From IMG/VR virus record IMGVR_UViG_2648501186_000008, positions 1 through 16,425 of that record: DNA of 16,425 bases; one strand, 5' to 3'. A program made the translations under genes and the position numbers. Positions 1 through 15,437 of the stretch are shown in pieces; position 1 is the first letter of the stretch; each line of letters opens with the position of its first letter. This DNA is from a virus (taxonomy: Duplodnaviria; Heunggongvirae; Uroviricota; Caudoviricetes). Below the pieces are notes generated by a model that saw only the letters and a list, made by a program, of their open reading frames with translations, was not told the origin of the DNA and did not search any database.

Positions 1-147
1 CATAACAAGCTGGGTCAGTATTAACTGACAGCGTTCGCGTGAAAGGTAAGTATTCTGCGCAATTTCCCCAACTGTTGCCGGTTCAGTGACGCTTAATTCA
101 TTAAACACCACTCTGGCTGTTTCGGTCATATCCTGCTGTTTTAGCAT
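1..147 (-). CDS. hypothetical protein, N-terminal fragment (gene continues beyond window start); HTH-like segment
   Basis: ATG at 147-145 preceded by a purine-rich stretch (AAAGAGAAAAAGAC); frame stays open to base 1 (MLKQQDMTETARVVFNELSVTEPATVGEIAQNTYLSRERCQLILTQLV...). Absent from the ORF track, presumably because it has no stop in-window. The VGEIAQ...LSRERCQLIL pattern resembles a helix-turn-helix. Confidence 0.3.
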   Translation of the reverse strand, partial: MLKQQDMTETARVVFNELSVTEPATVGEIAQNTYLSRERCQLILTQLVM

Positions 148-320
148 GTCTTTTTCTCTTTATTGGTTAACGTGACATACCAATAACTCTTGTCGAAAAA
201 GCCAGCAAGCTGAAAGACCGGTATTAATAACCACCTGCACATTTTATGTACCGAACCATTTTTCTGGCATAAAAAACCTCTCAATGGCGGGCGGTAAAAA
301 TCTTTGTTACTCAAGAAATT

Positions 321-1034
321 TTAACGCACTCTGACTGTATTAATTTCAAAATCATTAATATTTCCGCTATTAAATATAACGAATTTCTTACCCCCACTCC
401 TGTATGATTTCGATAACACCAGACGATCATCATAACGCGCAATAATGTAATACCATACATTCTCATAGTGGATCGCCTGATATTCCCTCTTAAACTGTGG
501 TTTGTACCAACCGGCAATAAGAGAGAATGCCCAGAAATAAATCATAAACCCAGCCATCATGAACTCAATTCGGTGATGACGAATAAAAGACATTTCCGAA
601 AAACATTTGACTGAAACAAGTCTTCTTCCAAACCTGACAAAAAGCGTGATTGTAAAGGCAGCAAGAATGCAGAAAATCAGTACATCTGGCTCAACATGCT
701 GATGAATTACCGAAAACTCCAGAACAGGTGGAATAAAAAGCAGCAATATCGCGAGAAAAAGCCGGATAAAACTCAAATTTTGTATATTGCGCTTTTGTTT
801 TATGCCCAAAAAGAAAACAATACCAACTCCCCATCCAATAAGGAATATAACGATAACTGTCACAGCATAAAACAAACTTCGTGCTACATCATCGACACCA
901 GCCCCGACAACCCACCATGGAAAGCCATAGTAAAATGAAGTACCCCATCCATAGAAATAAGCGCTTCCCCATCCTAGACAGCCCATATAAGCAACAAAAA
1001 GTGAAGAGTTTCTGAGCAGAGCACTGTCATCCAT
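321..1034 (-). CDS. multi-pass membrane protein of unknown function (about five hydrophobic helices, Trp/Tyr/Gly-rich N-terminus, roughly 60-aa soluble C-terminal tail); first gene downstream of the putative late promoter
   Basis: 237-codon ORF in a visibly AT-rich stretch where stop codons should be frequent by chance. Hydrophobic runs include LFYAVTVIVIFLIGWGVGIVFFLGI, FIRLFLAILLLFIPPVLEF and FMMAGFMIYFWAFSLIAGW. ATG at 1034 with only a weak SD-like GGTG upstream. I do not recognise the family. Confidence 0.55.
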   Translation of the reverse strand: MDDSALLRNSSLFVAYMGCLGWGSAYFYGWGTSFYYGFPWWVVGAGVDDVARSLFYAVTVIVIFLIGWGVGIVFFLGIKQKRNIQNLSFIRLFLAILLLFIPPVLEFSVIHQHVEPDVLIFCILAAFTITLFVRFGRRLVSVKCFSEMSFIRHHRIEFMMAGFMIYFWAFSLIAGWYKPQFKREYQAIHYENVWYYIIARYDDRLVLSKSYRSGGKKFVIFNSGNINDFEINTVRVR

Positions 1035-1175
1035 AGTAACACCATTAACAACTCAAAAATATCAACACATATTACATAACAAATTGGATTCCATGCAGTC
1101 AAGGGGCGTCATTGATGGAGAAAGTATTGGCACAATCATCATCACGTTTAATGTCTATGCCATTTTTTTGGGGAT

Positions 1176-1202
1176 AAAAAAACCCGCTCGGTCACGGGTT
1201 TT
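1176..1202 (-). terminator. intrinsic terminator hairpin (tR'-like), structurally bidirectional but stronger on the minus strand
   Basis: Stem AAACCCG (1180-1186) / CGGGTTT (1195-1201) with an 8-nt loop. On the minus strand the stem is followed by seven T; on the plus strand by four T. Confidence 0.55.
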
Positions 1203-1252
1203 ACTAGCTTTGCCATCACGTATAAAAACGGCAAAATATCAGATTCACACGA

Positions 1253-1281
1253 AATATATGCCTTTTTATCTACTTTTGCAA
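1253..1281 (-). promoter_or_regulatory. putative late promoter (PR'-like) immediately downstream of the Q-like gene
   Basis: Minus strand reads TTGCAA (1281-1276), 17-nt spacer, TATATT (1258-1253). Predicted start near 1246 would give a roughly 70-nt RNA ending at the 1176-1202 terminator, the arrangement of lambda PR'/6S RNA/tR'. Confidence 0.4.
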
Positions 1282-1288
1282 TACTTTG

Positions 1289-1954
1289 CTATGAAAATGC
1301 CGCCTTTTGTTTTGAACGTGTTCCCTCCACCAACAATAAAGCTTCACCATCCAGCCGATGAAAAATGTGTTTCATTGCAACCCAGTGACCAGTAAATGTC
1401 TTGGACCAGTTTTTGGTTGTTACTCCCACCAGTAACGCCAGTTCCTGGTATTCGTAACCTTCCCCACCAAAAAGCTCAGCTTTTACCGCCTGCGCCGCCA
1501 ACCAGATCAACGTCTTCAGGCGCACCAGAGTTTTTCCTGCAATTTTTCTGGTACCGGATTGAGCATTAAATTCAGTCCACGCCCACTGCGTTATCGCGAT
1601 CTGATGCTCCCAGCAAATGCTACCGCTGTAACACCACAGCAGCCAGGCTTTATGATGTTCTTCAAGAGACAGAACGGCGCGTCGCCATGATGATGTCGAA
1701 AACTCAACCGGACTGACCAGGGCAATTGATGAACCTTTCACCAGCGATTGCTTTCCCGGGATCGGTGGATTATCCAGCGTTACTATTTTTCCAGTGACCT
1801 TATCGCGGTACCGGATTTTTTTACGTCTGTAACGCCCTGTATTGAACATGGCATTCTCCTGCCAGGCCTCAAGCTGACCTTTTGTTGCTCCACTCAAATC
1901 AGCGGTGGCGATCATGAGCTGCTCACGCACAAACTGTAAATACTGGTTATTCAT
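1289..1954 (-). CDS. putative late-gene transcription antiterminator (Q-like), 221 aa
   Basis: Sits in the position Q occupies in lambdoid phages (directly after rusA, directly before a promoter plus short terminated transcript). Its ATG (1954-1952) overlaps the rusA stop as ATGA. The ORF track shows a GTG two codons upstream. Family call is positional; I do not recognise a Q signature motif. Confidence 0.45.
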   Translation of the reverse strand: MNNQYLQFVREQLMIATADLSGATKGQLEAWQENAMFNTGRYRRKKIRYRDKVTGKIVTLDNPPIPGKQSLVKGSSIALVSPVEFSTSSWRRAVLSLEEHHKAWLLWCYSGSICWEHQIAITQWAWTEFNAQSGTRKIAGKTLVRLKTLIWLAAQAVKAELFGGEGYEYQELALLVGVTTKNWSKTFTGHWVAMKHIFHRLDGEALLLVEGTRSKQKAAFS

Positions 1955-2310
1955 GCGCACTCCAGTTCTGTGATTTTTATCCCCAGCCGACCACCGGGAA
2001 CAACCTGACCGCGCATAATATTAACTTCATCAAACTGCTCATCGTCGATAAGCAGTCCCGCATGTGTCAGCGCATCCAGTGGTGCCTTCAGGATATTGTC
2101 CAGGTCGCGGCGGCGCTTATCCGGTGGCTCTGCAATAATTTTTATTGCCAGCCTTCCGGACAGGTTTAATTTCAGTCGCTGCTGGCGAACAATAAGCGCC
2201 ACATCACGGCGATAACGCTCACCGGCTTTTGATACAAAATATGTGCTGCCACGACGTCGCCAGTAGGTGTTCACCGTTGGCGGGTAAGGCAAAACAAATT
2301 CTATCCCCAT
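1951..2310 (-). CDS. rusA: RusA-family Holliday junction resolvase
   Basis: 119 aa with the RusA hallmarks DKRRRDLDN, DALT.AG and GGRLGIKITE, closely matching E. coli RusA as I remember it. AGAGG Shine-Dalgarno 6 nt before the ATG at 2310. Confidence 0.85.
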   Translation of the reverse strand: MGIEFVLPYPPTVNTYWRRRGSTYFVSKAGERYRRDVALIVRQQRLKLNLSGRLAIKIIAEPPDKRRRDLDNILKAPLDALTHAGLLIDDEQFDEVNIMRGQVVPGGRLGIKITELECA

Positions 2311-2322
2311 CAGTAACCTCTT

Positions 2323-3372
2323 TTATCCGAGTACGCCTGTTGCAAAGGCGTGATCAAGAAAACGAAAAATTAAATCAACCTGAGAACCATGTTTTTCTTC
2401 GAATGCCTGCGGATCCGCATGAAGCTCGTTGTGATGCTCCCGACACAGCGGCAACGTAAAAATATCGTGGGCCTTTGTTCCCATCCCTCCCTGACCGTGA
2501 CCAATCAGGTGATGGGGATCGTCGGCTGGCTTACCACAACACGCACACGGCTGTGTCTTCACCCAGCGTGTGTATTTCTCATTTACCCAACGGCGACGTT
2601 TAGGTCGCTTCATGAAAGATTCCGGAGACTCAGGATCAACGGCAATGCTGACCACCGTCTTTTCCTGTGGTGTGTTCTGTTGCTGGTGGACGTGAGGCAA
2701 CGGCGCAAGATTTTTTGTGCGCTGCTTCAGTATGCTGGTGGCGGTCTGCTCTCCCGGTACGATGTCGCTTTCGCGGTAAACCGTGCGGATTTTTTCCGCA
2801 CGTAATCCCAGAGAACGACGTAATACTGCCTCCGGTAGCGCGTCCGCCACCTGATTGCAGACCGCCCACCAGGATAATTCAGCCAGCGATAATTCCCGTT
2901 CCTGTGCACCACTTATTGCGTGACGTATGACGTCAATCATCCAGGCTGTCAGATTTTGTTGAGCAAGCTGCCCGAGTGATTCGGATGTCTGGTCGCGCAG
3001 CTGGTTGTCGCAGTGCCAGCACAACAACATTGCGCCGGTACCGTAACGATGTATGACGGTTTCACTGTGGTGATAGTCTCCATGAGGCCACTGGCAGGAT
3101 TTAACATGACGCAGGAGCCAGTCAGACAGTGCGCCAGCGCCGCCAGCAGCACGAATCACACGCTCATCGCTGAAAAACGGCAGCAATGTTTTATCTTCCG
3201 CCAGCGGCTGGCGAACGGCAGGAACGACTCCGGACGGCATACCGCGCATGTTTTTCGGTTCCGGCTCCACCAGCACCCTGCCGTTATGGAATACCTGCAT
3301 GGATTCACGCCCCGGCTTAAGGACCACCAGCCCGAGTTCCGGTACCGGAACAGGTCGAAGTAATACCCGCAC
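2323..3372 (-). CDS. DUF968-family prophage protein (YdfU-like) with C-terminal Cys/His-rich nuclease-like region
   Basis: 349 aa, the length I recall for Qin-prophage YdfU. C-terminus carries CACCGKP...HHLIGHG...CREHHNELH. GTG start at 3372 preceded by GGAGG at optimal spacing. Confidence 0.7.
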   Translation of the reverse strand: MRVLLRPVPVPELGLVVLKPGRESMQVFHNGRVLVEPEPKNMRGMPSGVVPAVRQPLAEDKTLLPFFSDERVIRAAGGAGALSDWLLRHVKSCQWPHGDYHHSETVIHRYGTGAMLLCWHCDNQLRDQTSESLGQLAQQNLTAWMIDVIRHAISGAQERELSLAELSWWAVCNQVADALPEAVLRRSLGLRAEKIRTVYRESDIVPGEQTATSILKQRTKNLAPLPHVHQQQNTPQEKTVVSIAVDPESPESFMKRPKRRRWVNEKYTRWVKTQPCACCGKPADDPHHLIGHGQGGMGTKAHDIFTLPLCREHHNELHADPQAFEEKHGSQVDLIFRFLDHAFATGVLG

Positions 3373-3373
3373 G

Positions 3374-3646
3374 TTACCTCCAGATGCGTTGCTGGAATGT
3401 GCGGGACGGACGCGGCGGGCGTTCGGAATAAGGGAGCCTGACGTAGATTATCCAGTGATGGTAGTCGAGGCTAAGGGCTTTCTTAAACTCATACCCACGT
3501 CTGCGGTAGTTATGAATCAGCCATTCGGCCTGTTCTTCAGTGCAGGGATCGTGCTGATACCAGTCATATTTGAATGTGTGAGAACACCGCCCTTGCCTGC
3601 TGGCAGGGGCGGTATCAGAATTGTGATGTTTGGTATTGTGCGCCAT
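3374..3646 (-). CDS. hypothetical small phage protein (90 aa)
   Basis: ATG at 3646 (the ORF-track start at 3700 is TTG). Stop lies 1 nt before the DUF968 GTG. Occupies the slot that rem holds next to ydfU in K-12 Qin, but I cannot confirm homology. Confidence 0.4.
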   Translation of the reverse strand: MAHNTKHHNSDTAPASRQGRCSHTFKYDWYQHDPCTEEQAEWLIHNYRRRGYEFKKALSLDYHHWIIYVRLPYSERPPRPSRTFQQRIWR

Positions 3647-3714
3647 CGGTTTTCTCTGCTGGCGCAGCAGGTGCCAGTTGTTCAAGCTGGCGTGCGGCAA
3701 TATTGTCTCTGATT

Positions 3715-3746
3715 TCTGTTGTCGTCAACAGGCAACGTGCTATCAT
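3715..3746 (+). promoter_or_regulatory. putative parDE promoter overlapping a palindrome (candidate autoregulation operator)
   Basis: TTGTCG (3719-3724), 16-nt spacer, TATCAT (3741-3746). Palindrome CTGTTG-TCGT-CAACAG at 3715-3730 overlaps the -35 region. Confidence 0.35.
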
Positions 3747-3781
3747 CGAATGGTGTTCTATCCTACTCCGTGAGGTTTACC

Positions 3782-4039
3782 ATGCGTACAACCCAACAAT
3801 TCAGCATTACATTAACTAACGAAATGGCTGACATGGTGCGCGCCCGTGTGGCTTCCGGTGCCTATGCTTCAGAAAGCGAGGTCATTCGTGAAGGGCTTCG
3901 CGCACTGAATGAGCGCGATAAAGCAATCGAAGCGTGGTTAACGCATTCAGCCGCCCCCTCTCTTGATTCTATCCGCGAAACCCCAAACAACGGACGCTCC
4001 ATTTCACAGGTTCGCGCCGCGATTCGATCCGGGAAGTAA
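3782..4039 (+). CDS. parD: ParD-family (ribbon-helix-helix) type II antitoxin
   Basis: 85 aa; FSITLTNEMADMVRARVASGAYASESEVIREGLRAL matches the ParD antitoxin RHH signature. GAGG 8 nt upstream of ATG 3782. The ORF-track N-terminal extension is rejected. Confidence 0.8.
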   Translation: MRTTQQFSITLTNEMADMVRARVASGAYASESEVIREGLRALNERDKAIEAWLTHSAAPSLDSIRETPNNGRSISQVRAAIRSGK

Positions 4040-4044
4040 TCTGC

Positions 4045-4344
4045 ATGACATATGAAGTCATCATTACTCCTGAGGCCGAACAACAAATAATCAACCTGCA
4101 CAGGTATATAACGGAGAAAGCAGGGAACGTCATTGCTGACAATTATGCCAATGCGCTTCTTGATTATCTTGATGGGTTTTCTACATTCCCGCATCGGGGC
4201 AATAAACGCGATGATATTCGCCAGGGGATGCGGGTAACTCATTTCCGCCACAGAACGATTATTGCTTTTGCCGTTGATAGCAGAAAAGTCTTTATTGTCG
4301 GTATCTATCATGGTGGGCAAAGTTATGAAACCGATTTCTTATAA
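4045..4344 (+). CDS. parE: ParE/RelE-family type II toxin
   Basis: 99 aa; begins 5 nt after the parD stop (coupled). C-terminal FPHRG...DIRQGMR...HRTIIAF...VFIVGIYHGGQ pattern is typical of the ParE/RelE fold. Confidence 0.8.
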   Translation: MTYEVIITPEAEQQIINLHRYITEKAGNVIADNYANALLDYLDGFSTFPHRGNKRDDIRQGMRVTHFRHRTIIAFAVDSRKVFIVGIYHGGQSYETDFL

Positions 4345-4424
4345 ACTTTTACCCACATCATTCCGGTGTTAGAATTAACCGTCCGCCCCCTCTCTTACTG
4401 GCGGATTCGTAGGCTATATAAATC

Positions 4425-4461
4425 AAAGATCCCGGCTCATGTTTGTGTCGGGATCTTTTTT
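4425..4461. terminator. bidirectional intrinsic terminator between convergent parE and the upstream minus-strand gene
   Basis: 10-bp perfect stem AAAGATCCCG (4425-4434) / CGGGATCTTT (4449-4458) with a 14-nt loop. Plus strand continues with six T; minus strand with TTTGATTTAT. Confidence 0.6.
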
Positions 4462-4468
4462 CGGCGAT

Positions 4469-4813
4469 TTATCCCCAGCGGCAAATCGAATACACCACCA
4501 GCGCCACCGCCATCGCAATTCCTACCGTTGTGAATGCTTCAGGCCAGGTCATCGTAAAATATCCTCCACGCTTATCAGTCCGTTCCGCTCCAGATAACTC
4601 ATCGACCAGACGCTGATATCCCACTGGTTTGTATTCATGCAATTTACCGGCTGGCTCTGCTGCCAGCGATACCAGTGCGATTTCCAGAACAGCAATATCC
4701 ATCTTATATGTGCGGATGATGTCATGGTCGATTGTGCCCGGTATGCACAGTCTCTGTGCTTCAATAGTCTCCTCTGCGTGAGCTATTAACTGCTCTCTGG
4801 TAAAAGTCGTCAT
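4469..4813 (-). CDS. hypothetical protein with C-terminal transmembrane anchor (114 aa)
   Basis: ATG at 4813 overlaps the HNH gene stop (ATGA); GAAGGGG Shine-Dalgarno upstream. C-terminal hydrophobic helix [15 protein letters not shown]. Confidence 0.5.
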
Positions 4814-5175
4814 GCCGTAGCCCCTTCTTGATATTTTTCAAACCAGAACACAACTGGGTCAGATTTCATTTCAACCAATCCCATACGAACCAGCGCTTTG
4901 CCTTTCCCGGACGCAAGGAATTCACGACGACCATCACTGATAATTCGCCGATAATCTTCCAGACTACTGCAATGCTTGTGCAGATTGCATGGGTGGCATG
5001 CCGGAACCATGTTGGATATATCGTCACGTTCCTGGTGAAGCATATTTCCATCAAAACGAATGACCGGTTTTACATGGTCTGCATGCCACTTTTCGCCAAG
5101 TTCGCAGCCGCAATAAGCACAGCGACCGCCGAACTTCATGCGCAGCTCTGCACGTTGTTTTTTCGTCAGTGCCAT
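4810..5175 (-). CDS. HNH endonuclease
   Basis: 121 aa with [19 protein letters not shown]...[14 protein letters not shown] (zinc-binding cysteines and the catalytic His-Asn-His arrangement). AAGGAAAG Shine-Dalgarno before ATG 5175. The ORF-track start at 5265 is an upstream extension. Confidence 0.8.
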
Positions 5176-5176
5176 A

Positions 5177-5395
5177 TCAGCTTTCCTTATACGGATTAAT
5201 TTTATTGTGCAGTGTGTTGAACGACGCCCACACCACGTCGTTATACAATTCAATAACTGGCTCAATTATTTTCACGATAAACCAGACCAGTAATAGCGGG
5301 GATATCGGTATCATCAACACGATAAATATAATGAGAAACAAAAATTCTGTCGCTCTACTTTTTCTCGGATATTCTTTTCTGAATAATGTAGTCAT
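5177..5395 (-). CDS. small hydrophobic membrane protein (72 aa)
   Basis: Single long hydrophobic helix (FLFLIIFIVLMIPISPLLLVWFIVKII) in an AT-rich islet. An in-frame TAA sits immediately upstream of ATG 5395, so the start is fixed. Start region is unusual (see the hairpin feature). Confidence 0.45.
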   Translation of the reverse strand: MTTLFRKEYPRKSRATEFLFLIIFIVLMIPISPLLLVWFIVKIIEPVIELYNDVVWASFNTLHNKINPYKES

Positions 5396-5427
5396 TTCTT
5401 ACCGCCCTTTCGGGCGGCCTCCTGACA
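5396..5427 (-). promoter_or_regulatory. intercistronic hairpin separating a strong Shine-Dalgarno from its start codon
   Basis: Minus-strand intergenic RNA reads TGTCAGGAGG-CCGCCC-GAAA-GGGCGG-TAAGAA-ATG: an AGGAGG, then a perfect 6-bp stem with GAAA loop, then the AUG of the 72-aa gene. Confidence 0.35.
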
Positions 5428-5640
5428 TTAATCATTGTGATAACTCATAGTTTCATTTGCAGCATCAACTGGATCAACATCCCACCAGCAATAATTTTGG
5501 TCGAGTCCTTCAGGTGTCCACGGCTCTAATTCATTTTTTACCGCATTCTCGTCACCAGTAATTTTAAAAATCTGCTCAGAAAATTTCCTCACCCACTCGT
5601 TATATTTTTCCGCATTAATGGTTTTCTGTGTATTTAACAT
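5428..5640 (-). CDS. hypothetical acidic small protein (70 aa)
   Basis: GGAGG 9-13 nt upstream of ATG 5640. AT-rich codon usage like its neighbour. No recognisable motif. Confidence 0.5.
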   Translation of the reverse strand: MLNTQKTINAEKYNEWVRKFSEQIFKITGDENAVKNELEPWTPEGLDQNYCWWDVDPVDAANETMSYHND

Positions 5641-5690
5641 AGATATGCCTCCAGTTAAGGATTTGATTTTATTTACAGTGCTAAATTTAA

Positions 5691-6047
5691 TTATTCAGTT
5701 CTGGATTTTGTCGCCCTGCGTATCCGCGCTTTCGCGTTACGCTCAATCTGAATTAACTTTTCTATATTTTTCCGTCTTTCCTGTTCCTCCTGGCGCAATA
5801 GCCTTACATCATCTGCCAGTCTGGTTTCTCTTTTCGCCACAGAGAGCATCCAGTCAAACGGCTCCACAACTGCACCGCAGATTTTACAGCGGACCTGACG
5901 CTCTTTTTCGTCAACCCGAACAGAGGCGTGATGACAATATGCTCTTTCCGATGGCTCATAAAGAAAATTAACCTGATTACGTGGGTCATCCTCTTTTACC
6001 GGAAATAAAACGATATTGCTTAACTCATCTTCTGGTTTTATTTCCAT
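5691..6047 (-). CDS. hypothetical protein with Cys/His cluster and basic C-terminal coiled coil (118 aa)
   Basis: Start moved to ATG 6047, which has an AAGGAGAAG Shine-Dalgarno. YCHH...CKICG cluster followed by a Lys/Arg/Glu-rich helix. Confidence 0.55.
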   Translation of the reverse strand: MEIKPEDELSNIVLFPVKEDDPRNQVNFLYEPSERAYCHHASVRVDEKERQVRCKICGAVVEPFDWMLSVAKRETRLADDVRLLRQEEQERRKNIEKLIQIERNAKARIRRATKSRTE

Positions 6048-6104
6048 GCTCTTCTCCTTTGATGTGAATGCCAGCGGTAATTGAAGCCTGATAGCTAATT
6101 TCAT

Positions 6105-6527
6105 TCACAGTATCGCCTCCTGAAATTTACCCTGATAGAAAGCCAGTACACGCTGCATAGCTGCGCTCTTCCGGCACTCGCTACAGATTATGTTCTGACG
6201 CCTGTCGTAGCGGCGTATTTCTCCGTCTGGTAATGACCAGATAAGGTCCGGATCAACCACAGATGTTTTCTTCAGATTTGCCCTTGAGAGTTTTTTGCGG
6301 GCATTTTGCCAGTCCTTACGCGCCTGCGCTGACGGGAATAACCCGTAACCAGAGTTGTATACATCGCCGCTGGCAACCAGCTCTCTTGCGAGAACGCTCA
6401 TCAGATATCTTGTTGCCCCAGTTTTAGCTTCCAGTTGTCGTAACGTCTCTCGCCCGCTCTGGCGTACGAGATCAACAATCTGCCCTTTAATTTTTTCCCG
6501 CTCTTCCTGTGTAAATACTTTTGCCAT
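6105..6527 (-). CDS. hypothetical phage protein (140 aa)
   Basis: Start moved to ATG 6527, directly preceded by AGGGGAGGG. The longer ORF-track version begins at an upstream codon overlapping the previous gene. Confidence 0.55.
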   Translation of the reverse strand: MAKVFTQEEREKIKGQIVDLVRQSGRETLRQLEAKTGATRYLMSVLARELVASGDVYNSGYGLFPSAQARKDWQNARKKLSRANLKKTSVVDPDLIWSLPDGEIRRYDRRQNIICSECRKSAAMQRVLAFYQGKFQEAIL

Positions 6528-6543
6528 AAGCCCTCCCCTGGAA

Positions 6544-7269
6544 TCACTTTTCCGACACAATACGACTGGAGGAATCAACAATCTGTCGGACAATATCCCG
6601 GTGCTTGTTCAGCTCCCGCAGCGCGGCGCAGACTCGCTCCCACTTCTGGACATGACTTTTCGCCCGGCGCAGTTCGCGGTTTGCCATATGCAGCGATGGT
6701 AAAATCAGGCCATTCGCTCGCGTTTCAGTGAACGATGGCAGTGACTGCACAAGGTCCGCCACAGTTTCTGTTTTAATTTCCTCCTGTGTTGCCGCTTCCT
6801 GTACTGGTAACGCAACACCGGCTGGCTGAGGAAAGGCTTTACCAGATGTTTTCGCTACCGATACAACTTTCGGCTCTGCTGGTAAATTACCGTCCGGCAG
6901 GCAGTAACGAAATTTACCGTTCTGATTTACGCGAATCAGACGACCTTTGCTGATGGCCATAGCCAGCGATGAGTTCACCCTGCGGGAAGTAATTCTGAAT
7001 ATCAGTGCAAGTTCATCAGCCGCTTTAGGGCCATGCTGTTCAATCGCCTCGATCAGCATTTGCGCTGTCACTTTAGAAGCCTGTGCCACAGATGCGTTTT
7101 CGTCGGTTTGAGTCAACCACCACATCGGGCCCTTGTTATCAGCTTCCCCGCGACGCTTCAGTTTCCACAGCTCGTTAATCGCCTCATCCCGGGTCATTCC
7201 CAGACGTGCTGCCACTTCCTGGGAAGAGGCTTTTCCCATTGCTTTCAGTGCGTCAAAAACGGTCTCCAT
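6544..7269 (-). CDS. putative winged-helix DNA-binding phage protein (241 aa)
   Basis: Start moved to ATG 7269 with GGGAGGAA Shine-Dalgarno. Two segments have helix-turn-helix character (SSQEVAARLGMTRDEAINELWKL and ADELALIFRITSRRVNSSLAMAISKG). Confidence 0.55.
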   Translation of the reverse strand: METVFDALKAMGKASSQEVAARLGMTRDEAINELWKLKRRGEADNKGPMWWLTQTDENASVAQASKVTAQMLIEAIEQHGPKAADELALIFRITSRRVNSSLAMAISKGRLIRVNQNGKFRYCLPDGNLPAEPKVVSVAKTSGKAFPQPAGVALPVQEAATQEEIKTETVADLVQSLPSFTETRANGLILPSLHMANRELRRAKSHVQKWERVCAALRELNKHRDIVRQIVDSSSRIVSEK

Positions 7270-7303
7270 TAAAATTTCCTCCCGGTAAAAATTACTTCTC
7301 AAC

Positions 7304-7969
7304 TCAAACAAAACCAGCCGCTTTCCGGCGTTCATATTCCTGTTTCAGCAACTCAATTGGCGTTGGTCCCGACGGGTGTTTGGGTGCCGCCAGTTGTCGC
7401 CGGACTGGCGGAATGCTCAGGCCATTACCAACATGCTTTGCCCATTTCGTCAGTTGCCATTCTGCAAGCCGTTTTAACTCCCCTTCGGTCATCTGGCGCT
7501 CAATCCCCTTTGAACGCATCTCGAGGCAAATGTGATACAGCACAGGCTGAGACCACGGGTACTTATCACTTCCGTCGTATCGCCAGGACTCATTGCGCCA
7601 GCGGCGGTACTCCTCCATCACAGCATCCACCGTCAGACCAAATGGATTGGCTCCGCTTTCCGAAATCAGCGCCACAAACTCAGCCAGGTCCGGAGGCCAT
7701 GTTTCACCCGCCCGGCAGCGGTCCATGCACTGGCGGCAGACCTGCCGGATTTGCTGCTCAGTCATCGCGCCAATCTGTGCAATCCAGAGCTTCGAAGGTG
7801 CGGCCCCGTTCTTCTGGGTCCAGCGGTTCGAATAAACCTCCCCCATGAGTTCCCACAGCTTCCAGGCCGTTTCCGTCGCTGATAAATCCGTTTTCACGTT
7901 CCCACTGCTCACGTGCTGCCCGAATTTCCTGAACTGCTCGTGATGCGGTGCCACCTGGTGCTGCTGCAT
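7304..7969 (-). CDS. lambda P-like replication protein (DnaB helicase loader)
   Basis: C-terminal two-thirds aligns by eye with lambda P (ETWPPDLAEFVALI, YPWSQPVLYHI, MTEGELKRLAEWQL against lambda PFLPSPGQFVAWC, YPWKSNAHYWLV, LTDAELRRKAADEL). ATG 7969 has an AAGGGGG Shine-Dalgarno but lies 212 nt inside the O-like gene; alternative starts at 7846 or 7765. Confidence 0.7.
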   Translation of the reverse strand: MQQHQVAPHHEQFRKFGQHVSSGNVKTDLSATETAWKLWELMGEVYSNRWTQKNGAAPSKLWIAQIGAMTEQQIRQVCRQCMDRCRAGETWPPDLAEFVALISESGANPFGLTVDAVMEEYRRWRNESWRYDGSDKYPWSQPVLYHICLEMRSKGIERQMTEGELKRLAEWQLTKWAKHVGNGLSIPPVRRQLAAPKHPSGPTPIELLKQEYERRKAAGFV

Positions 7970-8777
7970 GGTTTACCCCCTTGCTGACTGGTTTAACCTG
8001 CGCCCTGACGTGATTTACGTGACGGGCGAATTTCTGCTCCCACTGAATCTGCGTGAACACTTTCCCCTCCGCTGCCCAGTAGTCCCGGAAGGCTGCAAAT
8101 TCAGCTGGTGTAAATTCCGGCTCAGGCAGAGCCACTCCCCACAGAGCAGCCCGTCGTCGAAAATCCGGCGACGGATGCCAGCCATCGGTCATCGGAAATT
8201 TCCCGATGGGTTCGCTCATGCCGTCCAGATATTCGGGCTCCGGTGTCTGCGATGGCGTACCGTTCGACTCACTGGTCGTAGCTCTCTCGCGCACGCGCGC
8301 GTTATGTGTGGGGTTTAATTCTTTATCTGTATCTTTATCTGTCGTGACTCGTCGTGACATGTCGTGACATATGCGTGACTCGTCGTGACACCCCTCATTC
8401 TGTTTTCGTAATTTTTCCCTCTCGCGCTGCGCTCTCTTGCGCTCTGCCGGGGATTTCGCGGTTTGTGAAACGTTGCCATTGTCCTCTTTCAGTACCTGGC
8501 GTTTTTCCCATCCAGTGATTAAATCACCATCAAGTACCCGCCCCTGCATCGTCTGCAAAATTGAATCAATTACCTCTTCTGTCACGTCGAGCGCACTTGC
8601 CAAATCTTCTGTCGTGACATCAATGTGACCTCGCGTGACATTTCGTGACGCGCTCACCAGGAGGTGGATATACACTGCCATCACTGTTGCAATTGGCTGC
8701 CCTGACACCCTGGCAATTGTTCGCCACTTAGGGTCATTTGGCATGTCATGCCATAATCTGAGCCAAGCGTTAGCCAT
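7758..8777 (-). CDS. replication initiator / replisome organiser (O-like) with origin iterons inside the coding sequence
   Basis: 339 aa from ATG 8777 with GAGGTG Shine-Dalgarno (track start 8783 is GTG). Contains two clusters of CGTGAC-type repeats; directly upstream of the P-like gene, the lambda O-P arrangement. Confidence 0.65.
   Translation of the reverse strand: MANAWLRLWHDMPNDPKWRTIARVSGQPIATVMAVYIHLLVSASRNVTRGHIDVTTEDLASALDVTEEVIDSILQTMQGRVLDGDLITGWEKRQVLKEDNGNVSQTAKSPAERKRAQREREKLRKQNEGCHDESRICHDMSRRVTTDKDTDKELNPTHNARVRERATTSESNGTPSQTPEPEYLDGMSEPIGKFPMTDGWHPSPDFRRRAALWGVALPEPEFTPAEFAAFRDYWAAEGKVFTQIQWEQKFARHVNHVRAQVKPVSKGVNHAAAPGGTASRAVQEIRAAREQWERENGFISDGNGLEAVGTHGGGLFEPLDPEERGRTFEALDCTDWRDD
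8320..8389. repeat. origin-type iteron array: five GTCGTGAC-like 8-mers phased at 10-11 bp, preceded by 2x TCTTTATCTG
   Basis: 8-mers start at 8341, 8351, 8361, 8372 (TGCGTGAC) and 8382. Direct repeat TCTTTATCTG at 8320-8329 and 8332-8341. AT-rich tract 8301-8340 and alternating block CGCGCACGCGCGCG at 8288-8301 lie adjacent. Confidence 0.7.
8581..8649. repeat. second cluster of CGTGAC-type repeats in the 5' part of the O-like gene
   Basis: GTCACG (inverted) at 8581-8586; CGTGAC at 8613-8618, 8634-8639 and 8644-8649, with GTGAC at 8625-8629. Spacing again about one helical turn. Confidence 0.45.
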
Positions 8778-8848
8778 ACTCACCTCTTCTGATACCGAAT
8801 CTTTTTACTCACGAGTTGCCGGAAGTGATTCGATATGGCTATTGTCAG

Positions 8849-9274
8849 TCAATGTACTGCCACAGCATTTCCTGCCGGGCCACCACGGTTCATCTGATTG
8901 AAACCGGCGATTGCCACTGCGACAAAATCATCAGCGTCTCTCACCAGTCGCTCCCGCGTCTCCACCAGCTCCCGAAAATAAGCTGAACTGTGGCTGCGCA
9001 TTCTGGCCACCAGCAAAGGTGGCATTGCCTTTTCGATCGCTGGTAACAACGTCTGAATTTTTTCAACTGCATCAGGGGTGTCTTTCTCTACCCAGCGGAA
9101 AATTTTCTGGGTATTGCGAGCCAGGGCTTCCGGATGGCTATCGTCATACAGTTCAGGAAACGTCATACCCAACTCAAAATAAGCCTGGGTTATTCCAGCT
9201 GCTGGAACTTTTTCGCCATCAGGACGCGCCCAGGCATTCATCGCCATGCGGATGTGTTCATGCTTGATTTTCAT
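8849..9274 (-). CDS. ydaT: YdaT-like protein (CII-like regulator / toxic protein of the Rac-type immunity region)
   Basis: 141 aa immediately downstream of the Cro-like gene, matching the racR / ydaS-ydaT layout and protein lengths of K-12 Rac as I recall them. AGAGG Shine-Dalgarno before ATG 9274. Symbol is tentative. Confidence 0.6.
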   Translation of the reverse strand: MKIKHEHIRMAMNAWARPDGEKVPAAGITQAYFELGMTFPELYDDSHPEALARNTQKIFRWVEKDTPDAVEKIQTLLPAIEKAMPPLLVARMRSHSSAYFRELVETRERLVRDADDFVAVAIAGFNQMNRGGPAGNAVAVH

Positions 9275-9296
9275 GAATCATTTGCCTCTTGATGTT

Positions 9297-9593
9297 TCAG
9301 GTATGATCAAATGAGGATTTGTTACTGTCATTTAGTTGCTTCACTGACATATTCTGCGAACAACATGCCGAACGTCGTAAATATGACCAGTCAATATCAG
9401 GACGAAGTTCTTCGCACAGAACCTCACCTCTTGTTGCACGTTCAATTGCTGGACATCTCTCGGCAGGCAATTGACGTACCCCTTTGATCCATTGATTTAC
9501 GCTTGGAGGTGATACACCTAAAAGCCTAGCCATTGCTGATTGCCCACCGACAACAGCACAAGCTTGCTTGAATGAATAGTTCTCTTTTTTCAT
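9297..9593 (-). CDS. ydaS: Cro-like HTH regulator (YdaS-like)
   Basis: 98 aa; HTH segment FKQACAVVGGQSAMARLLGVSPPSVNQWIKG. Transcribed divergently from the repressor across an operator-rich spacer. Symbol is tentative. Confidence 0.7.
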   Translation of the reverse strand: MKKENYSFKQACAVVGGQSAMARLLGVSPPSVNQWIKGVRQLPAERCPAIERATRGEVLCEELRPDIDWSYLRRSACCSQNMSVKQLNDSNKSSFDHT

Positions 9594-9619
9594 CGAATGA
9601 ACTCCAAAAACACACAGAA

Positions 9620-9689
9620 ATATTAGGCGACGCCTAACGCAAATGTCAATAGGCTGTGCCTAATGCGATAAAGGTAGGGATTGCCTAAT
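9620..9689. promoter_or_regulatory. O_R-like region: three phased operators TAGGC-N3-GCCTA interlocked with a near-consensus leftward promoter
   Basis: Operators at 9623-9637 (perfect palindrome TTAGGCGACGCCTAA), 9650-9662 (TAGGCTGTGCCTA) and 9675-9687 (TAGGGATTGCCTA). Minus-strand promoter TTGACA (9649-9644), 18-nt spacer, TAATAT (9625-9620) drives the Cro-like gene. Confidence 0.6.
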
Positions 9690-9716
9690 GCAATGAGCAT
9701 AGGAGAATATTAAGCA

Positions 9717-10193
9717 ATGCTTAGTGGTAAAGACTTAGGCCGAGCGATAGAGCAGGCCATTAACAAAAAAATCGCATCGGGATCCGTCAAATCAAAGGCG
9801 GAGGTCGCACGCCACTTCAAAGTCCAACCACCATCAATTTATGACTGGATTAAGAAAGGCTCTATAAGTAAAGATAAACTTCCAGAATTATGGCGTTTCT
9901 TTTCTGATGTTGTTGGTCCAGAGCATTGGGGGCTTAACGAATACCCCATACCAACCCCCACCAATTCAGATACAAAAAGTGAACTTTTAGATATAAACAA
10001 CCTTTATCAAGCAGCCTCTGATGAAATAAGAGCGATTGTAGCTTTCCTGTTATCTGGAAATGCTACAGAACCAGATTGGGTTGACCACGATGTTCGCGCC
10101 TACATAGCAGCGATGGAAATGAAAGTGGGTAAGTATCTGAAAGCTCTAGAATCTGAACGGAAAAGCCAGAACATCACAAAAACTGGAACTTAA
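9717..10193 (+). CDS. racR: prophage repressor (RacR-like, CI-type HTH protein)
   Basis: 158 aa; N-terminal HTH KSKAEVARHFKVQPPSIYDWIKKG. AGGAG Shine-Dalgarno before ATG 9717. Flanked on both sides by the same operator motif. Symbol is tentative. Confidence 0.75.
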   Translation: MLSGKDLGRAIEQAINKKIASGSVKSKAEVARHFKVQPPSIYDWIKKGSISKDKLPELWRFFSDVVGPEHWGLNEYPIPTPTNSDTKSELLDINNLYQAASDEIRAIVAFLLSGNATEPDWVDHDVRAYIAAMEMKVGKYLKALESERKSQNITKTGT

Positions 10194-10289
10194 ACTTATA
10201 TGGTCTGACGGAAAACTCCTGGATTCCGTTATTTAACCCCCCATCACTTTCTGCTGTCGCCATCACCTATTAGGTTACGATCAAAACAT

Positions 10290-10331
10290 TAGGCATAGCC
10301 TATTGACAATCAATTAGGCATTACCTATAGT
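10290..10331 (+). promoter_or_regulatory. pL-like early-left promoter overlapped by two operators (O_L)
   Basis: TTGACA (10303-10308), 17-nt spacer, TATAGT (10326-10331). Operators TAGGCATAGCCTA (10290-10302) and TAGGCATTACCTA (10315-10327) abut the -35 and fill the spacer. Confidence 0.55.
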
Positions 10332-10508
10332 TCCAGCATACCACCCACCCCGCCCCACAGAACGCAGGGCAATACTTCGAGTTACCAGGCAGTGGTCAGG
10401 GGTTAAGTAGCCAGCCCGAGGCGTAAGAACATGACGGCAGGGTTCAACTTTAACTATGCAGCAGGTTTTTGTTCCGCCACCCCGGCGTTAAGGGGAAATG
10501 AGGTCAGC

Positions 10509-10664
10509 ATGGATACTATCGATCTTGGCAACAGCGAATCTCTGGTATGTGGCGTGTTCCCCAACCAGGACGGCACGTTCACTGCGATGACGTATACCAA
10601 AAGCAAAACGTTTAAAACCGAATCTGGCGCGCGTCGCTGGCTGGAAAGAAACTCAGGTGAGTGA
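10509..10664 (+). CDS. small early-left protein (51 aa)
   Basis: ATG 10509 with GAGG 6 nt upstream. The ORF-track version starts at ATG 10431, which is also possible. First ORF of the pL-like operon. Confidence 0.4.
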   Translation: MDTIDLGNSESLVCGVFPNQDGTFTAMTYTKSKTFKTESGARRWLERNSGE

Positions 10665-10665
10665 T

Positions 10666-10794
10666 ATGGATTTCGACACAATCATGGAAAAGGCTTACGA
10701 AGAATACTTCGAAGGCCTTGCCGAAGGCGAAGAAGCTCTCAGCTTCAGTGAGTTTAAACAGGCGCTTTCCAGCTCGGCAAAATCTAACGGCTGA
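10666..10794 (+). CDS. small acidic protein (42 aa), not in the ORF track
   Basis: ATG 10666 with AGGTGAG Shine-Dalgarno, 2 nt after the previous stop; translates MDFDTIMEKAYEEYFEGLAEGEEALSFSEFKQALSSSAKSNG. The overlapping track ORF 10661-10870 (GTG start, Arg/Ser-rich) is the less plausible frame. Confidence 0.35.
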   Translation: MDFDTIMEKAYEEYFEGLAEGEEALSFSEFKQALSSSAKSNG

Positions 10795-10823
10795 TAAGCG
10801 AAGCAGCACCGCGAGGAATCAGT

Positions 10824-11042
10824 ATGCAGAAACGAGAACCCGTCATCATCGCGCCAGACTATACCGATGATGAACTTTATGAGTGGATGCGCCAGAAAAT
10901 TAATGCAGCGCAGGATCTGAAATGGGCCAATGAAGCCAGGGCTAAGCAGGCTGAAAATCTGTCCGCTCTGGAGCAGGATATCACCAGGCTGGAAAAAGCA
11001 GCGGCATTAAGCATTGCCAGAATGATTTCATACCCGCGTTAA
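10824..11042 (+). CDS. small early-left protein (72 aa), helical
   Basis: GAGGAA Shine-Dalgarno before ATG 10824. C-terminal half (AQDLKWANEARAKQAENLSALEQDITRLEKAAALS) looks coiled-coil. Function unknown. Confidence 0.45.
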   Translation: MQKREPVIIAPDYTDDELYEWMRQKINAAQDLKWANEARAKQAENLSALEQDITRLEKAAALSIARMISYPR

Positions 11043-11177
11043 TAGCTAACCAACGAAGCTAAGGTTGGTAATTAAGGAGTTCTCCACGGGTCAGGTGGAG
11101 TGCGTGCGCCGGACACGGGTGAGCATCCGGTACGTTCTTTAAAAATCTGGATAGTCCCAACTTATTTAAACGGTTAA

Positions 11178-11609
11178 TTATCTTGAGTTCATCCAGAACT
11201 TATTATTGCAAGCGGGGCAAAAAGTACGAAAATGAGCATCAAAGCGCATTATTTCCATTGGCTGAAGTACAGATATTACCTTTTTTCCAAAACATTGTGG
11301 GCAAAGATACACAGTTATCTCAGTATCGCCTATAAATTGCTTCTTGGAATATACAAGGGTTCCAGAATCAAGCTTGTTAAGCTTGTAACCTTCCGCCTGT
11401 CGCTGAAAATCTTCTGTCTCTGCAATTTTTGCTTTGAGATGCATTATCTCTTCATCACGAAAGCGGATCGCATCGCAAAGAGAGAAGCATTCCGCCTGAA
11501 GCGTGATTAGTTTGTTCTGAAGTTCAATAGTTGCGGCTTTAACTTCTGCATCCGTTTTTGCGTCATTAATAACCTTAGCGAGACCAGCTGTCTCCTTTAT
11601 CGCAGCCAT
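11178..11609 (-). CDS. coiled-coil protein with C-terminal CxxC...CxxC zinc ribbon (143 aa), antisense to the early-left operon
   Basis: ATG 11609 has only a weak SD; the track extends it to a GTG at 11738. N-terminal heptad-like helix (IELQNKLITLQAE...EEIMHLKAKIAETEDFQRQ); C-terminal CPQC-x24-CPAC. AT-rich relative to its neighbours. Confidence 0.5.
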   Translation of the reverse strand: MAAIKETAGLAKVINDAKTDAEVKAATIELQNKLITLQAECFSLCDAIRFRDEEIMHLKAKIAETEDFQRQAEGYKLNKLDSGTLVYSKKQFIGDTEITVYLCPQCFGKKVISVLQPMEIMRFDAHFRTFCPACNNKFWMNSR

Positions 11610-11640
11610 AGCCGCTGACAGTTCTGCTATCACGTTGAGT

Positions 11641-11700
11641 ACTCTTCTCGTTGTTGGGGATATCCGGATTATACAAATTTCTTGTTGTTGGGGAATAACA
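11641..11700 (-). promoter_or_regulatory. candidate promoter for the zinc-ribbon gene: perfect TATAAT bracketed by an 11-bp direct repeat
   Basis: Minus-strand TATAAT at 11673-11668. Direct repeat GTTGTTGGGGA at 11650-11660 and 11684-11694 (plus strand) sits either side. No good -35. Confidence 0.3.
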
Positions 11701-11949
11701 GGAACCACCTCGCCTGACGTGGTTAAAAGCAGGCACACAACGCGAAAGCGTACGGCGAGGTAGCTGGTTCATAGATAGCCTGTCGTTAAATTTTCGTCGA
11801 CCGTGCACTTCCGGTTGTGGCAATCCGCGAAATGGCGCGGCGGTAAGTATGGCTGGGTTATCCTTACCCCATTAGTGGCACCGGGTTGTCAGGTTGACCA
11901 TACGCTTAAGTGACAACCCCGCTGCAACAACCCATGTTGATTACCTTTT

Positions 11950-11995
11950 GGCGGGTATCCGTTTTTTGTTTTCCCTTGTGATACCCGCCCTTTTT
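11950..11995 (+). terminator. terminator-like hairpin on the plus strand inside the early-left operon
   Basis: Perfect 10-bp stem GGCGGGTATC (11950-11959) / GATACCCGCC (11980-11989), followed by C then five T. The 20-nt loop is long for a canonical terminator. Confidence 0.4.
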
Positions 11996-11999
11996 AAAG

Positions 12000-12161
12000 T
12001 GAATTTTGTGATGCGGTGAATGCGGCTCAGCGCACGCGGAACAGTTAAAAAGGCCAGTTGACTTCCGTATTGGTTCTTATGGGTGGGTTCTCTGTATCCG
12101 GCGTTAATTATTAACTGGTTAACGTCACCTGGAGGCACCAGGCACCGCATCACAAAATTCA
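12000..12161. repeat. perfect 19-bp inverted repeat flanking a 124-bp segment
   Basis: TGAATTTTGTGATGCGGTG at 12000-12018 and its exact reverse complement CACCGCATCACAAAATTCA at 12143-12161. Confidence 0.6.
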
Positions 12162-12178
12162 TTGTTGAGGATGCGATA

Positions 12179-12361
12179 ATGGAAACGTTATTACCAAACG
12201 TCAATACGTCTGAAGGTTGTTTTGAAATTGGTGTCAGAATCAGTAACCCTGTATTTACTGAAGATGCCATTAATAAGAGAAAACACGAACGGGAGCTATT
12301 AAATCAAATATGCATTGTTTCAATGCTGGCCCGTTTACGCCTGATGCAAAAAGGACGATGA
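12179..12361 (+). CDS. small protein (60 aa)
   Basis: ATG 12179 with GAGGA Shine-Dalgarno 8 nt upstream, just after the right inverted-repeat arm. Stop overlaps the next gene's start region. Confidence 0.4.
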   Translation: METLLPNVNTSEGCFEIGVRISNPVFTEDAINKRKHERELLNQICIVSMLARLRLMQKGR

Positions 12362-12363
12362 CA

Positions 12364-12567
12364 ATGAATACAGTATTTGCACTCGTTCTGACGGTTTTTC
12401 TTAATACAAGCGAGCCAGTCGATCTTGTTATTGGTATACATGACTCAATGAAAGAATGCATGGCTGCCGCAGCGGAACAGAAAATTCCCGGCAACTGTTA
12501 TCCGGTTGATAAAGTTACTCGCATGGACAATAACGAAATCCCGGCAGGACTTAAAACAGCACCGTAA
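12364..12567 (+). CDS. small secreted/membrane protein with N-terminal signal-peptide-like segment (67 aa)
   Basis: MNTVFALVLTVFLNTSEP hydrophobic N-terminus. AAGGA 8 nt upstream of ATG 12364; an in-frame ATG at 12358 is too close to the SD. Confidence 0.45.
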   Translation: MNTVFALVLTVFLNTSEPVDLVIGIHDSMKECMAAAAEQKIPGNCYPVDKVTRMDNNEIPAGLKTAP

Positions 12568-12647
12568 TTAATATCCGGTTTCATTTTTATATGCCAGCAA
12601 TGGCAGGGATTTGTTCACCCTTAAATCTGTAATGAGGTTAAAACAAA

Positions 12648-15119: not shown

Positions 15120-15185
15120 TGTTCAACCCTGATCGCCGTCCCCGAATTATATTGGCGGCGGTCATGCTGTAAGGCACGTGACCAC

Positions 15186-15437
15186 ATGTACGAATTAACT
15201 CTATCGCCAGCAGAGATTCAAGAGATCACGAAATACGAGCGATACACAAAACAGCAACACCAGTTAAGGCTGCACGGTATCCCATTTGTAATCGGTCCTA
15301 AAAACGAACCAATAGTTCTTCGCAGGGATATTCCACACGGACTGACTACGATGCCAAAAGCACCTGAACTGGTTTCCGCTGAACCCGATTTTGAGGCGCT
15401 GAACAATGGGAAGATCAAGAAAAAACAAAAAAGATAA
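15186..15437 (+). CDS. putative excisionase / recombination directionality factor
   Basis: 83-aa basic-tailed protein immediately upstream of and overlapping the integrase by 32 nt. Call is positional; I do not see a lambda Xis-like sequence. Confidence 0.45.
   Translation: MYELTLSPAEIQEITKYERYTKQQHQLRLHGIPFVIGPKNEPIVLRRDIPHGLTTMPKAPELVSAEPDFEALNNGKIKKKQKR

Follow-up and report, generated by a model that had tools for sequence, protein, structure and literature searches.

The 16,425-nt stretch of DNA considered here (the window; positions 1 to 16,425 of IMG/VR virus record IMGVR_UViG_2648501186_000008) covers the early-to-late part of a lambdoid prophage that reads mostly on the minus strand, and the element under study is its open reading frame (ORF) at positions 321 to 1,034, the product of which is a predicted inner-membrane protein of the STM1630/TfpB family. 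The gene for the antiterminator Q, a promoter-like site, a terminator, and the ORF follow one another in that order on the same strand, an arrangement that puts the ORF in the position of a late gene (Table 1). A preliminary description, made from the sequence without database searches, had proposed a 237-aa multi-pass membrane protein as the first gene behind Q and its promoter/terminator unit. That protein corresponds exactly to a single ORF, for which the minus strand can now be specified, and its placement is borne out by the three upstream features.

The terminator consists of the hairpin AAAACCCG-TGACCGA-GCGGGTTTT (its arms also written AAAACCCG/CGGGTTTT) followed by a T-run, and the 56-nt segment that contains it has a folding energy of -13.9 kcal/mol. 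A consensus scan for promoter and terminator signals did not list this hairpin; it aligns with the annotated terminator behind Q of phage 434. Likewise, the -10 element and early transcribed region of the promoter-like site can be aligned with the sequence that follows the Q82-like Q of phage 434. The ORF itself has a GC content of 38.9% (36% at third codon positions, GC3), compared with 47.7% for the window as a whole and 48.7-54.6% for Q, rusA, and the DUF968 gene, in keeping with the AT-rich DNA described initially. The ratio of nonsynonymous to synonymous substitution rates (dN/dS) of the family gene lies between 0.07 and 0.2 in all comparisons in which dS is unsaturated, among them that of the window with the copy on enterotoxigenic Escherichia coli (ETEC) plasmids and that of the Salmonella enterica and S. 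arizonae copies (0.07). The ORF is therefore a real gene, and these ratios indicate that the family gene is under purifying selection.

Table 1. Positions of the gene and of associated features in the window.
Feature	Positions	Strand	Details and basis
Start of the next gene (65 aa in full, continuing past the left edge of the window)	1..147	minus	RefSeq coding sequence WP_000917767.1
Decayed second tR'-type leader copy	229..305	minus	3' arm of hairpin mutated; blastn, sequence, alignment A4
TfpB/STM1630-family ORF	321..1034	minus	ATG start, 237 aa, predicted inner-membrane protein; PF27470, PHROG 1521
Tandem repeat, 24-nt, 71% identical	925..972	minus	GWGSAYFY/GWGTSFYY within helix 1; repeat search
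Shine-Dalgarno sequence, weak (GGTG)	1040..1043	minus	5 nt ahead of ATG; from sequence
Candidate own promoter, TTGACT, 17-18 nt, TG-n-TATGTA	1073..1102	minus	Best-conserved upstream island; putative function
Intrinsic terminator (tR'-like), also module boundary	1173..1202	minus	Hairpin and T-run
Late-promoter-like site (pR'-like), TTGCAA-17-TATATT	1253..1281	minus	Promoter scan
Antiterminator Q	1289..1960	minus	PF06323 Phage_antiter_Q, E=1e-89

Several catalogues already contain this gene. Several E. coli chromosomes match the window's first 1400 bases at 100% identity, and one recent RefSeq record of a 100% identical locus names the product 'STM1630 family protein' (WP_000342735.1). The ORF also matches PHROG 1521 (annotated as of unknown function; E=1e-84), and all 104 homologues found carry a precomputed assignment to Pfam PF27470 (TfpB). 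Scans against Pfam-A and NCBIfam with library copies older than the PF27470 model gave no match for the ORF. The homologue P0069, which aligns over 100% of the length with 48% identity (E=1e-70), is STM1630 itself, as it adjoins sseJ and its start residues match a published deletion primer (PMC6785131 S13). Full-length similarity thus places the protein in the STM1630/TfpB family, which is the outcome of the remote-homology search that the preliminary description had suggested, and the gene is not an unrecognised one. Homologues are found mostly in Enterobacteriaceae, with distant ones in Pasteurellaceae and Neisseria. A genome scan with alignment A2 returned only six species-level loci; alignment A3 was too divergent for such a scan, and a second homologue search with A3 yielded mostly enterobacterial candidates and gained few distant members. 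Within E. coli, the gene matches DNA in 1,197 of 5,426 complete genomes, at up to four copies each, and a Shigella sonnei cluster of homologues holds 999 sequences. The name TfpB presumably goes back to an ORF of the Moraxella pilin inversion region. Publications that mention 'TfpB' concern chemistry, anaesthesia, and an unrelated Acinetobacter pilus motor, and did not confirm the origin of the Pfam name; literature searches by accession or locus tag returned nothing further on the family.

Comparison of the same locus across related prophages reveals extensive turnover behind the terminator, as had been anticipated for a cargo slot. A query spanning Q to the gene matches 1605 E. coli genomes, only 181 of which retain the gene, so that the alternative of one fixed gene at this site in all related prophages does not apply. 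More than 1,400 genomes have the Q backbone without the gene, and in most of the matches sampled from them similarity to the window ends at about position 1176, the last T of the terminator T-run. Two such loci were examined, and in both the terminator is followed by tRNA genes and then by either TerB/DUF3927 or an IS66 element. From the other side, blastn similarity between the window and an Stx2j phage starts at 1154, just past the terminator, and similarity to the ETEC plasmid stops 2 bp beyond the stop codon of the gene. To judge from these alignments, the end of the terminator is a sharp recombination boundary for late-region cargo. The far side of the gene carries a related mark. Directly 3' of it, reading from 305 to 229, lies a decayed leader that matches the working terminator of the HM670 prophage (L029 2824-2861) and also CFT073 by blastn, and the gene therefore lies between a working terminator and a relic of one. 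Bracketing by tR' and a decayed tR' is what recombination between the late leaders of different phages would leave behind. The GC contrast, the presence or absence of the gene at the terminator boundary, and this bracketing together account for its description as cargo.

Comparable cargo of the Q-to-lysis slot includes stx1/stx2, tRNA genes, and NanS-p esterases, with which the gene shares position, late transcription, variability, and deviant base composition; LT-II is a further cargo of this slot in lambdoid phages. Unlike the stx and NanS-p cargo, its product is neither a secreted toxin nor an enzyme of known activity, and the family gene can co-occur with stx in the slot instead of replacing it. 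Indeed, the gene directly adjoins stx in several phages (L030 3001-5309; L099 2540-4714), so that the earlier comparison with Shiga toxin cargo proves apt. One order is Q, gene, tRNA-Ile, stx2jA/B, and NanS-type esterase; another is stxA, stxB, gene, and lysozyme; and two further IMG/VR loci (L073, L054) have arrangements of their own. Morons such as bor and lom of lambda, in the sense reportedly defined by Hendrix and colleagues, are said to be extra genes between conserved neighbours that have atypical composition. The gene is present or absent between conserved neighbours (181/1605) and differs from them in GC content (38.9% vs 49-55%), and it resembles the lambda-type morons further in a likely promoter of its own and a likely benefit to the lysogen. 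It departs from them in that its promoter is a candidate and that only the decayed tR' copy, and no convincing terminator of its own, was found after it.

Its position suggests that late transcription, antiterminated by Q after induction, reads into the gene. A second mode of expression is probable. Between the terminator and the start codon, conservation peaks in an island, CTTGAC-N17-TTTGTTATG, that resembles a -35 element and an extended -10 element. The core of this island, TTGAC-N17-TTTGTTATG, is kept across 44 distinct upstream sequences, including that of the ETEC plasmid copy, which has no Q, and it moves with the gene. This conservation points to a probable sigma-70 promoter just upstream of the gene and hence to expression in the lysogen. 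The earlier expectation of a Q-dependent gene induced late agrees with the position and yet is probably half the story, given both the island and the promoter that the Salmonella homologue possesses in its own right.

A close described parallel to this arrangement is found in phage 434 and in prophages of E. coli O157:H7, where a 56% identical homologue (CPT_434_68, 'putative membrane protein', and WP_001302581, respectively) occupies the same slot behind a PF06323-type Q and terminator and shares the TTGAC...TTTGTTATG island upstream. The order there is lpxR, ylcG, Q, terminator, gene, DUF3927, and pinholin; phage 434 has an additional NanS-type esterase between the last two. Loci of the window's type differ from these in what follows the gene, namely a 65-aa winged-helix-like protein, a DNA methyltransferase, and a holin pair with a GH108 lysin, in place of the DUF3927 (TciB-like) gene and the pinholin/signal-arrest-release (SAR) endolysin cassette. 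Three unrelated Q families precede the gene: PF06323, PF03589 (in HM670 and the Stx2j phage), and PF06530 (in Yersinia). A Q of the PF06323 or PF03589 type ends 211-283 bp upstream in 65 of 80 IMG/VR loci. Because it travels with three Q families and with different lysis cassettes, the gene is independent of any one phage backbone.

This independence bears on a possible role in the timing of lysis, in which the protein, as the first made from the late transcript, would act like an antiholin or otherwise adjust the triggering of the holin. In favour of this, the gene comes first on the late transcript, precedes the lysis cassette, and encodes a membrane-embedded product. The cassettes that it accompanies are unrelated, however, with a class II pinholin and SAR endolysin in phage 434 and O157:H7 and a holin pair with GH108 lysin in the relatives of the window, and purifying selection is seen where lysis genes are absent, in Salmonella, Citrobacter rodentium, Avibacterium, and ETEC plasmids. 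Most sampled prophages with the same Q lack the gene altogether, and no similarity to holins or antiholins was found in Pfam or PHROGs. Since the gene is indifferent to cassette type and persists where there is none, the lysis-modulating role entertained in the preliminary description is very improbable, and service in lysis or in virion assembly is unlikely in general. Identity as a holin or antiholin, taken to require about 60-150 aa, 1-4 membrane helices, an adjacent endolysin, and a match to a holin family, was rejected for a protein of 237 aa with five helices and a beta domain. No homology to a holin or lysis component was found in Pfam, NCBIfam, or PHROGs. The observation that no holin-sized gene stands behind the late promoter was correct, and in the identical RefSeq locus the two annotated holins lie ~3.2-3.9 kb, and the GH108 lysin ~3.9-4.4 kb, downstream of the gene.

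Copies of the gene also occur outside recognisable phage late regions. ETEC plasmids (L006, L019-L024) carry an intact, 75% identical copy amid insertion sequence (IS) debris, near eltAB and the STb gene; the copy at 5001-5714 (4496-5209 in L006) is divergent from eltAB at 2987-4134 and ~870 bp from it. In the index of a public assembly collection, 1,285 blocks contain the exact ETEC plasmid protein, and many of these are short contigs. A pINV plasmid of E. coli likewise holds an intact copy (L031 3001-3717), flanked on both sides by IS elements only. S. enterica, including subspecies arizonae and diarizonae, has a single chromosomal gene, and C. rodentium (L018 3863-5717) and Salmonella (L007) share an ADH-MCP-LysR neighbourhood around it. 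In C. rodentium, a split lpxR lies 178 bp upstream of the gene, matching the order in phage 434 except that ylcG and Q are missing, which suggests that the site shared with Salmonella is an old prophage remnant. In Avibacterium, the gene stands among housekeeping genes. These copies in Salmonella, C. rodentium, Avibacterium, and the ETEC and pINV plasmids establish that the gene is retained without a phage. They also allow an assessment of whether it is merely a functionless remnant that hitch-hikes beside neighbouring cargo. Pseudogene copies do exist, as in CFT073, and many copies sit in IS-rich debris. Such a history is nevertheless rather improbable, as dN/dS values of 0.07-0.2 contradict a loss of function, the ORF is intact in a spread on the scale of 1,197 genomes, and its N-terminal motif is invariant across genera.

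Published data are available for STM1630 of Salmonella Typhimurium. It is reported to contain an H-NS-binding site and to have its own promoter, with expression in medium that induces Salmonella pathogenicity island 2 (SPI-2) and in macrophages (PMC6785131 S1 Text), and it has been listed with SPI-2-coregulated genes (PMC2639726). Attenuation of signature-tagged STM1630 mutants has been reported in both calves and chicks (cited in PMC6785131), and deletion in strain 4/74 raised fold replication in macrophages (PMC6785131). STM1630 and the gene in the window both lie in AT-rich, horizontally acquired DNA, and their products share five helices, a beta domain, and an invariant N-terminal motif. 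STM1630 is a stand-alone chromosomal gene beside sseJ under SPI-2 regulation, whereas the copy in the window sits behind Q and a late terminator, inside an apparently complete early-to-late prophage region.

An alternative assignment raised at the outset is that of an inner-membrane protein of superinfection exclusion or abortive infection, which would block incoming phage DNA or kill infected cells. Prophage-encoded inner-membrane proteins often act in this way, the candidate promoter would permit the expression in the lysogen that such a role demands, and retention in decayed prophages and plasmids would also fit a domesticated defence gene. A PADLOC search, however, returned no known or candidate defence family at E<=0.1, leaving the idea without support from defence models, and no known defence partner gene lies nearby. 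The chromosomal copy of Avibacterium is placed among housekeeping genes rather than in a defence island, and regulation of the Salmonella homologue with virulence genes points to conditions in the host instead of phage attack. A role in exclusion is accordingly unlikely, though it deserves more weight than one in lysis.

The protein itself was modelled with AlphaFold2. An alignment of only 22 close homologues gave a poor model, with a predicted local distance difference test score (pLDDT) of 59. Addition of 17 distant members to these 22, for a 39-sequence alignment, raised the pLDDT to 79 with a predicted template modelling score (pTM) of 0.69. The distant members came from an exhaustive profile search of 1.84 billion representatives, in which only 71 clusters reached E<=1e-3. 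The model contains helices at residues 10-36, 47-78, 89-111, 116-138, and 155-181 and a C-terminal, five-strand beta domain of ~55 aa at 184-235. Four of the five helices exceed 1.6 on the Kyte-Doolittle scale; helix 1, which is aromatic and glycine-rich, falls below it. The five helices and unusual N-terminus of the preliminary description are thus recovered, and the topology prediction that it had recommended adds the previously unremarked beta domain. Mean counts of lysine plus arginine are 1.9 for the N-terminal tail, 2.7 for loop 2, and 4.5 for loop 4, compared with 0.1 for loop 1 and 0.4 for loop 3, a pattern that is alike in close and distant family members. Because of these loop charges, the positive-inside rule assigns the N-terminus to the cytoplasm and the beta domain to the periplasm. 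The predicted topology is therefore one of five membrane helices that lead from a cytoplasmic N-terminus to a small, SH3/Sm-like periplasmic domain.

Conservation is highest in helix 1 and the loop that follows, where G21-G31 is invariant and is succeeded by YYGFPWW and D..ARSL (alignment A2), corresponding to the family motif AY..GWG.AY.YGWG...YYG.PWW....D.(I/V)ARSL. Within helix 1, two 8-aa units, GWGSAYFY|GWGTSFYY, follow each other in tandem and fall in the part of the protein that varies least across the family. Helices, loop charges, and beta domain are retained down to 15-29% identity (alignments A2, A3), and the protein in the window possesses the complete architecture of the family. 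A membrane channel or transporter, for example an MscS-like one in which the helices and a small beta barrel form an oligomeric pore, could be envisaged for such a fold, and the glycine-rich repeat of helix 1 could support helix packing. The top Foldseek matches are in fact MscS-family channels, at non-significant scores (E>=0.4). The beta domain of MscS is cytoplasmic, in contrast to the periplasmic location predicted here, and a profile search of PDB sequences yielded a single match at chance level (E=3.4), with no sequence match to a solved structure. A channel is, on this evidence, the least probable of the assignments considered.

The reading that best accommodates these observations, and to which we would give about an even chance, is that of a moron-type cargo gene of lambdoid phages that encodes an STM1630/TfpB inner-membrane protein working for the benefit of the carrier cell. 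The gene would have been placed directly after the late terminator, at the recombination boundary where lambdoid phages swap cargo; late transcription after induction would read it through Q antitermination; and its own sigma-70 promoter would also provide product in the lysogen. The benefit would most likely go to the bacterial carrier, through a role at the level of the envelope during life in an animal host.

Several points weigh against this reading. No biochemical function is on record for any member of the family, and fold searches against solved structures and viral models returned nothing specific beyond chance. The -10 hexamer of the candidate promoter is poor, and a strict consensus scan did not pick the site up; the Salmonella promoter, ~190 nt upstream of the start codon, is not homologous to the island in the window. 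Three lysine or arginine residues directly after helix 5 make a periplasmic C-terminal domain fit less well. The Salmonella phenotypes are weak or inconsistent: deletion of STM1630 caused no growth defect and had no effect in strain D23580 (PMC6785131), and a screen that reported hypermotility (PMC4219756) was followed by a retest whose confirmed phenotypes did not include it (PMC4534456). Finally, the linkage to toxin genes could reflect hitch-hiking of phage debris and not function.

A more specific and decidedly speculative extension, which we consider improbable, is that STM1630/TfpB constitutes a dedicated mobile envelope module delivered with Stx and heat-labile toxin (LT) cargo, in which the beta domain and the aromatic/glycine helix would alter the envelope in colonisation or close the inner membrane to phage DNA. 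If so, the gene would have been kept for that activity in Salmonella, Citrobacter, the pINV plasmids of Shigella and enteroinvasive E. coli (EIEC), and ETEC plasmids, and a 'hypothetical' gene that about one-fifth of complete E. coli genomes carry would act in virulence or immunity without having been recognised as such. The family gene fills the slot from which Shiga toxin is expressed and is often found right beside stx or eltAB, and a defined role, whether in colonisation, exclusion, or another process, would explain a very common prophage gene and conserved neighbour of toxin genes. As a discovery, the window adds little, in that the protein is in RefSeq, Pfam, and PHROGs. Gene, family, and position are all on record, and the annotation of phage 434 already shows the same arrangement (PMC9119081). 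The present analysis contributes the exact module boundary at the terminator, the relic terminator 3' of the gene, the island conserved upstream of it, and the finding that the gene is repeatedly linked to stx and eltAB.

Additional observations concern the neighbours of the gene. In the clade of the 56% identical homologue, a small membrane protein of the DUF3927 (TciB-like) type is always encoded 92 bp after the gene (L002, with DUF3927 at 5803-5961; L104-L114), and in the clade of the window this partner is absent or ~3 kb away. A 41-aa ORF after STM1630 was considered as a DUF3927 relic and rejected. The 65-aa product of the next gene in the window has a weak winged-helix match (Pfam TrmB, E=0.0026) that falls below the cut-off; in most close IMG/VR relatives this gene accompanies the family gene, usually with a DNA methyltransferase after it. 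At the right end of the window, the integrase gene (15406-16425) is followed by genes for an 823-aa exonuclease, a YdaS/Cro-like regulator, YdaT, and DnaT/P-like replication proteins, and further leftward by DUF1627, DUF977, an HNH protein, a parDE pair, DUF968, RusA, and Q. The parD/parE toxin-antitoxin pair (3719-4344, plus strand) is encoded on the other strand, with the DUF968 block on one side of it and the replication genes on the other, and an otherwise similar prophage (L001) carries hokD and a 2.5-kb hypothetical gene in its place.
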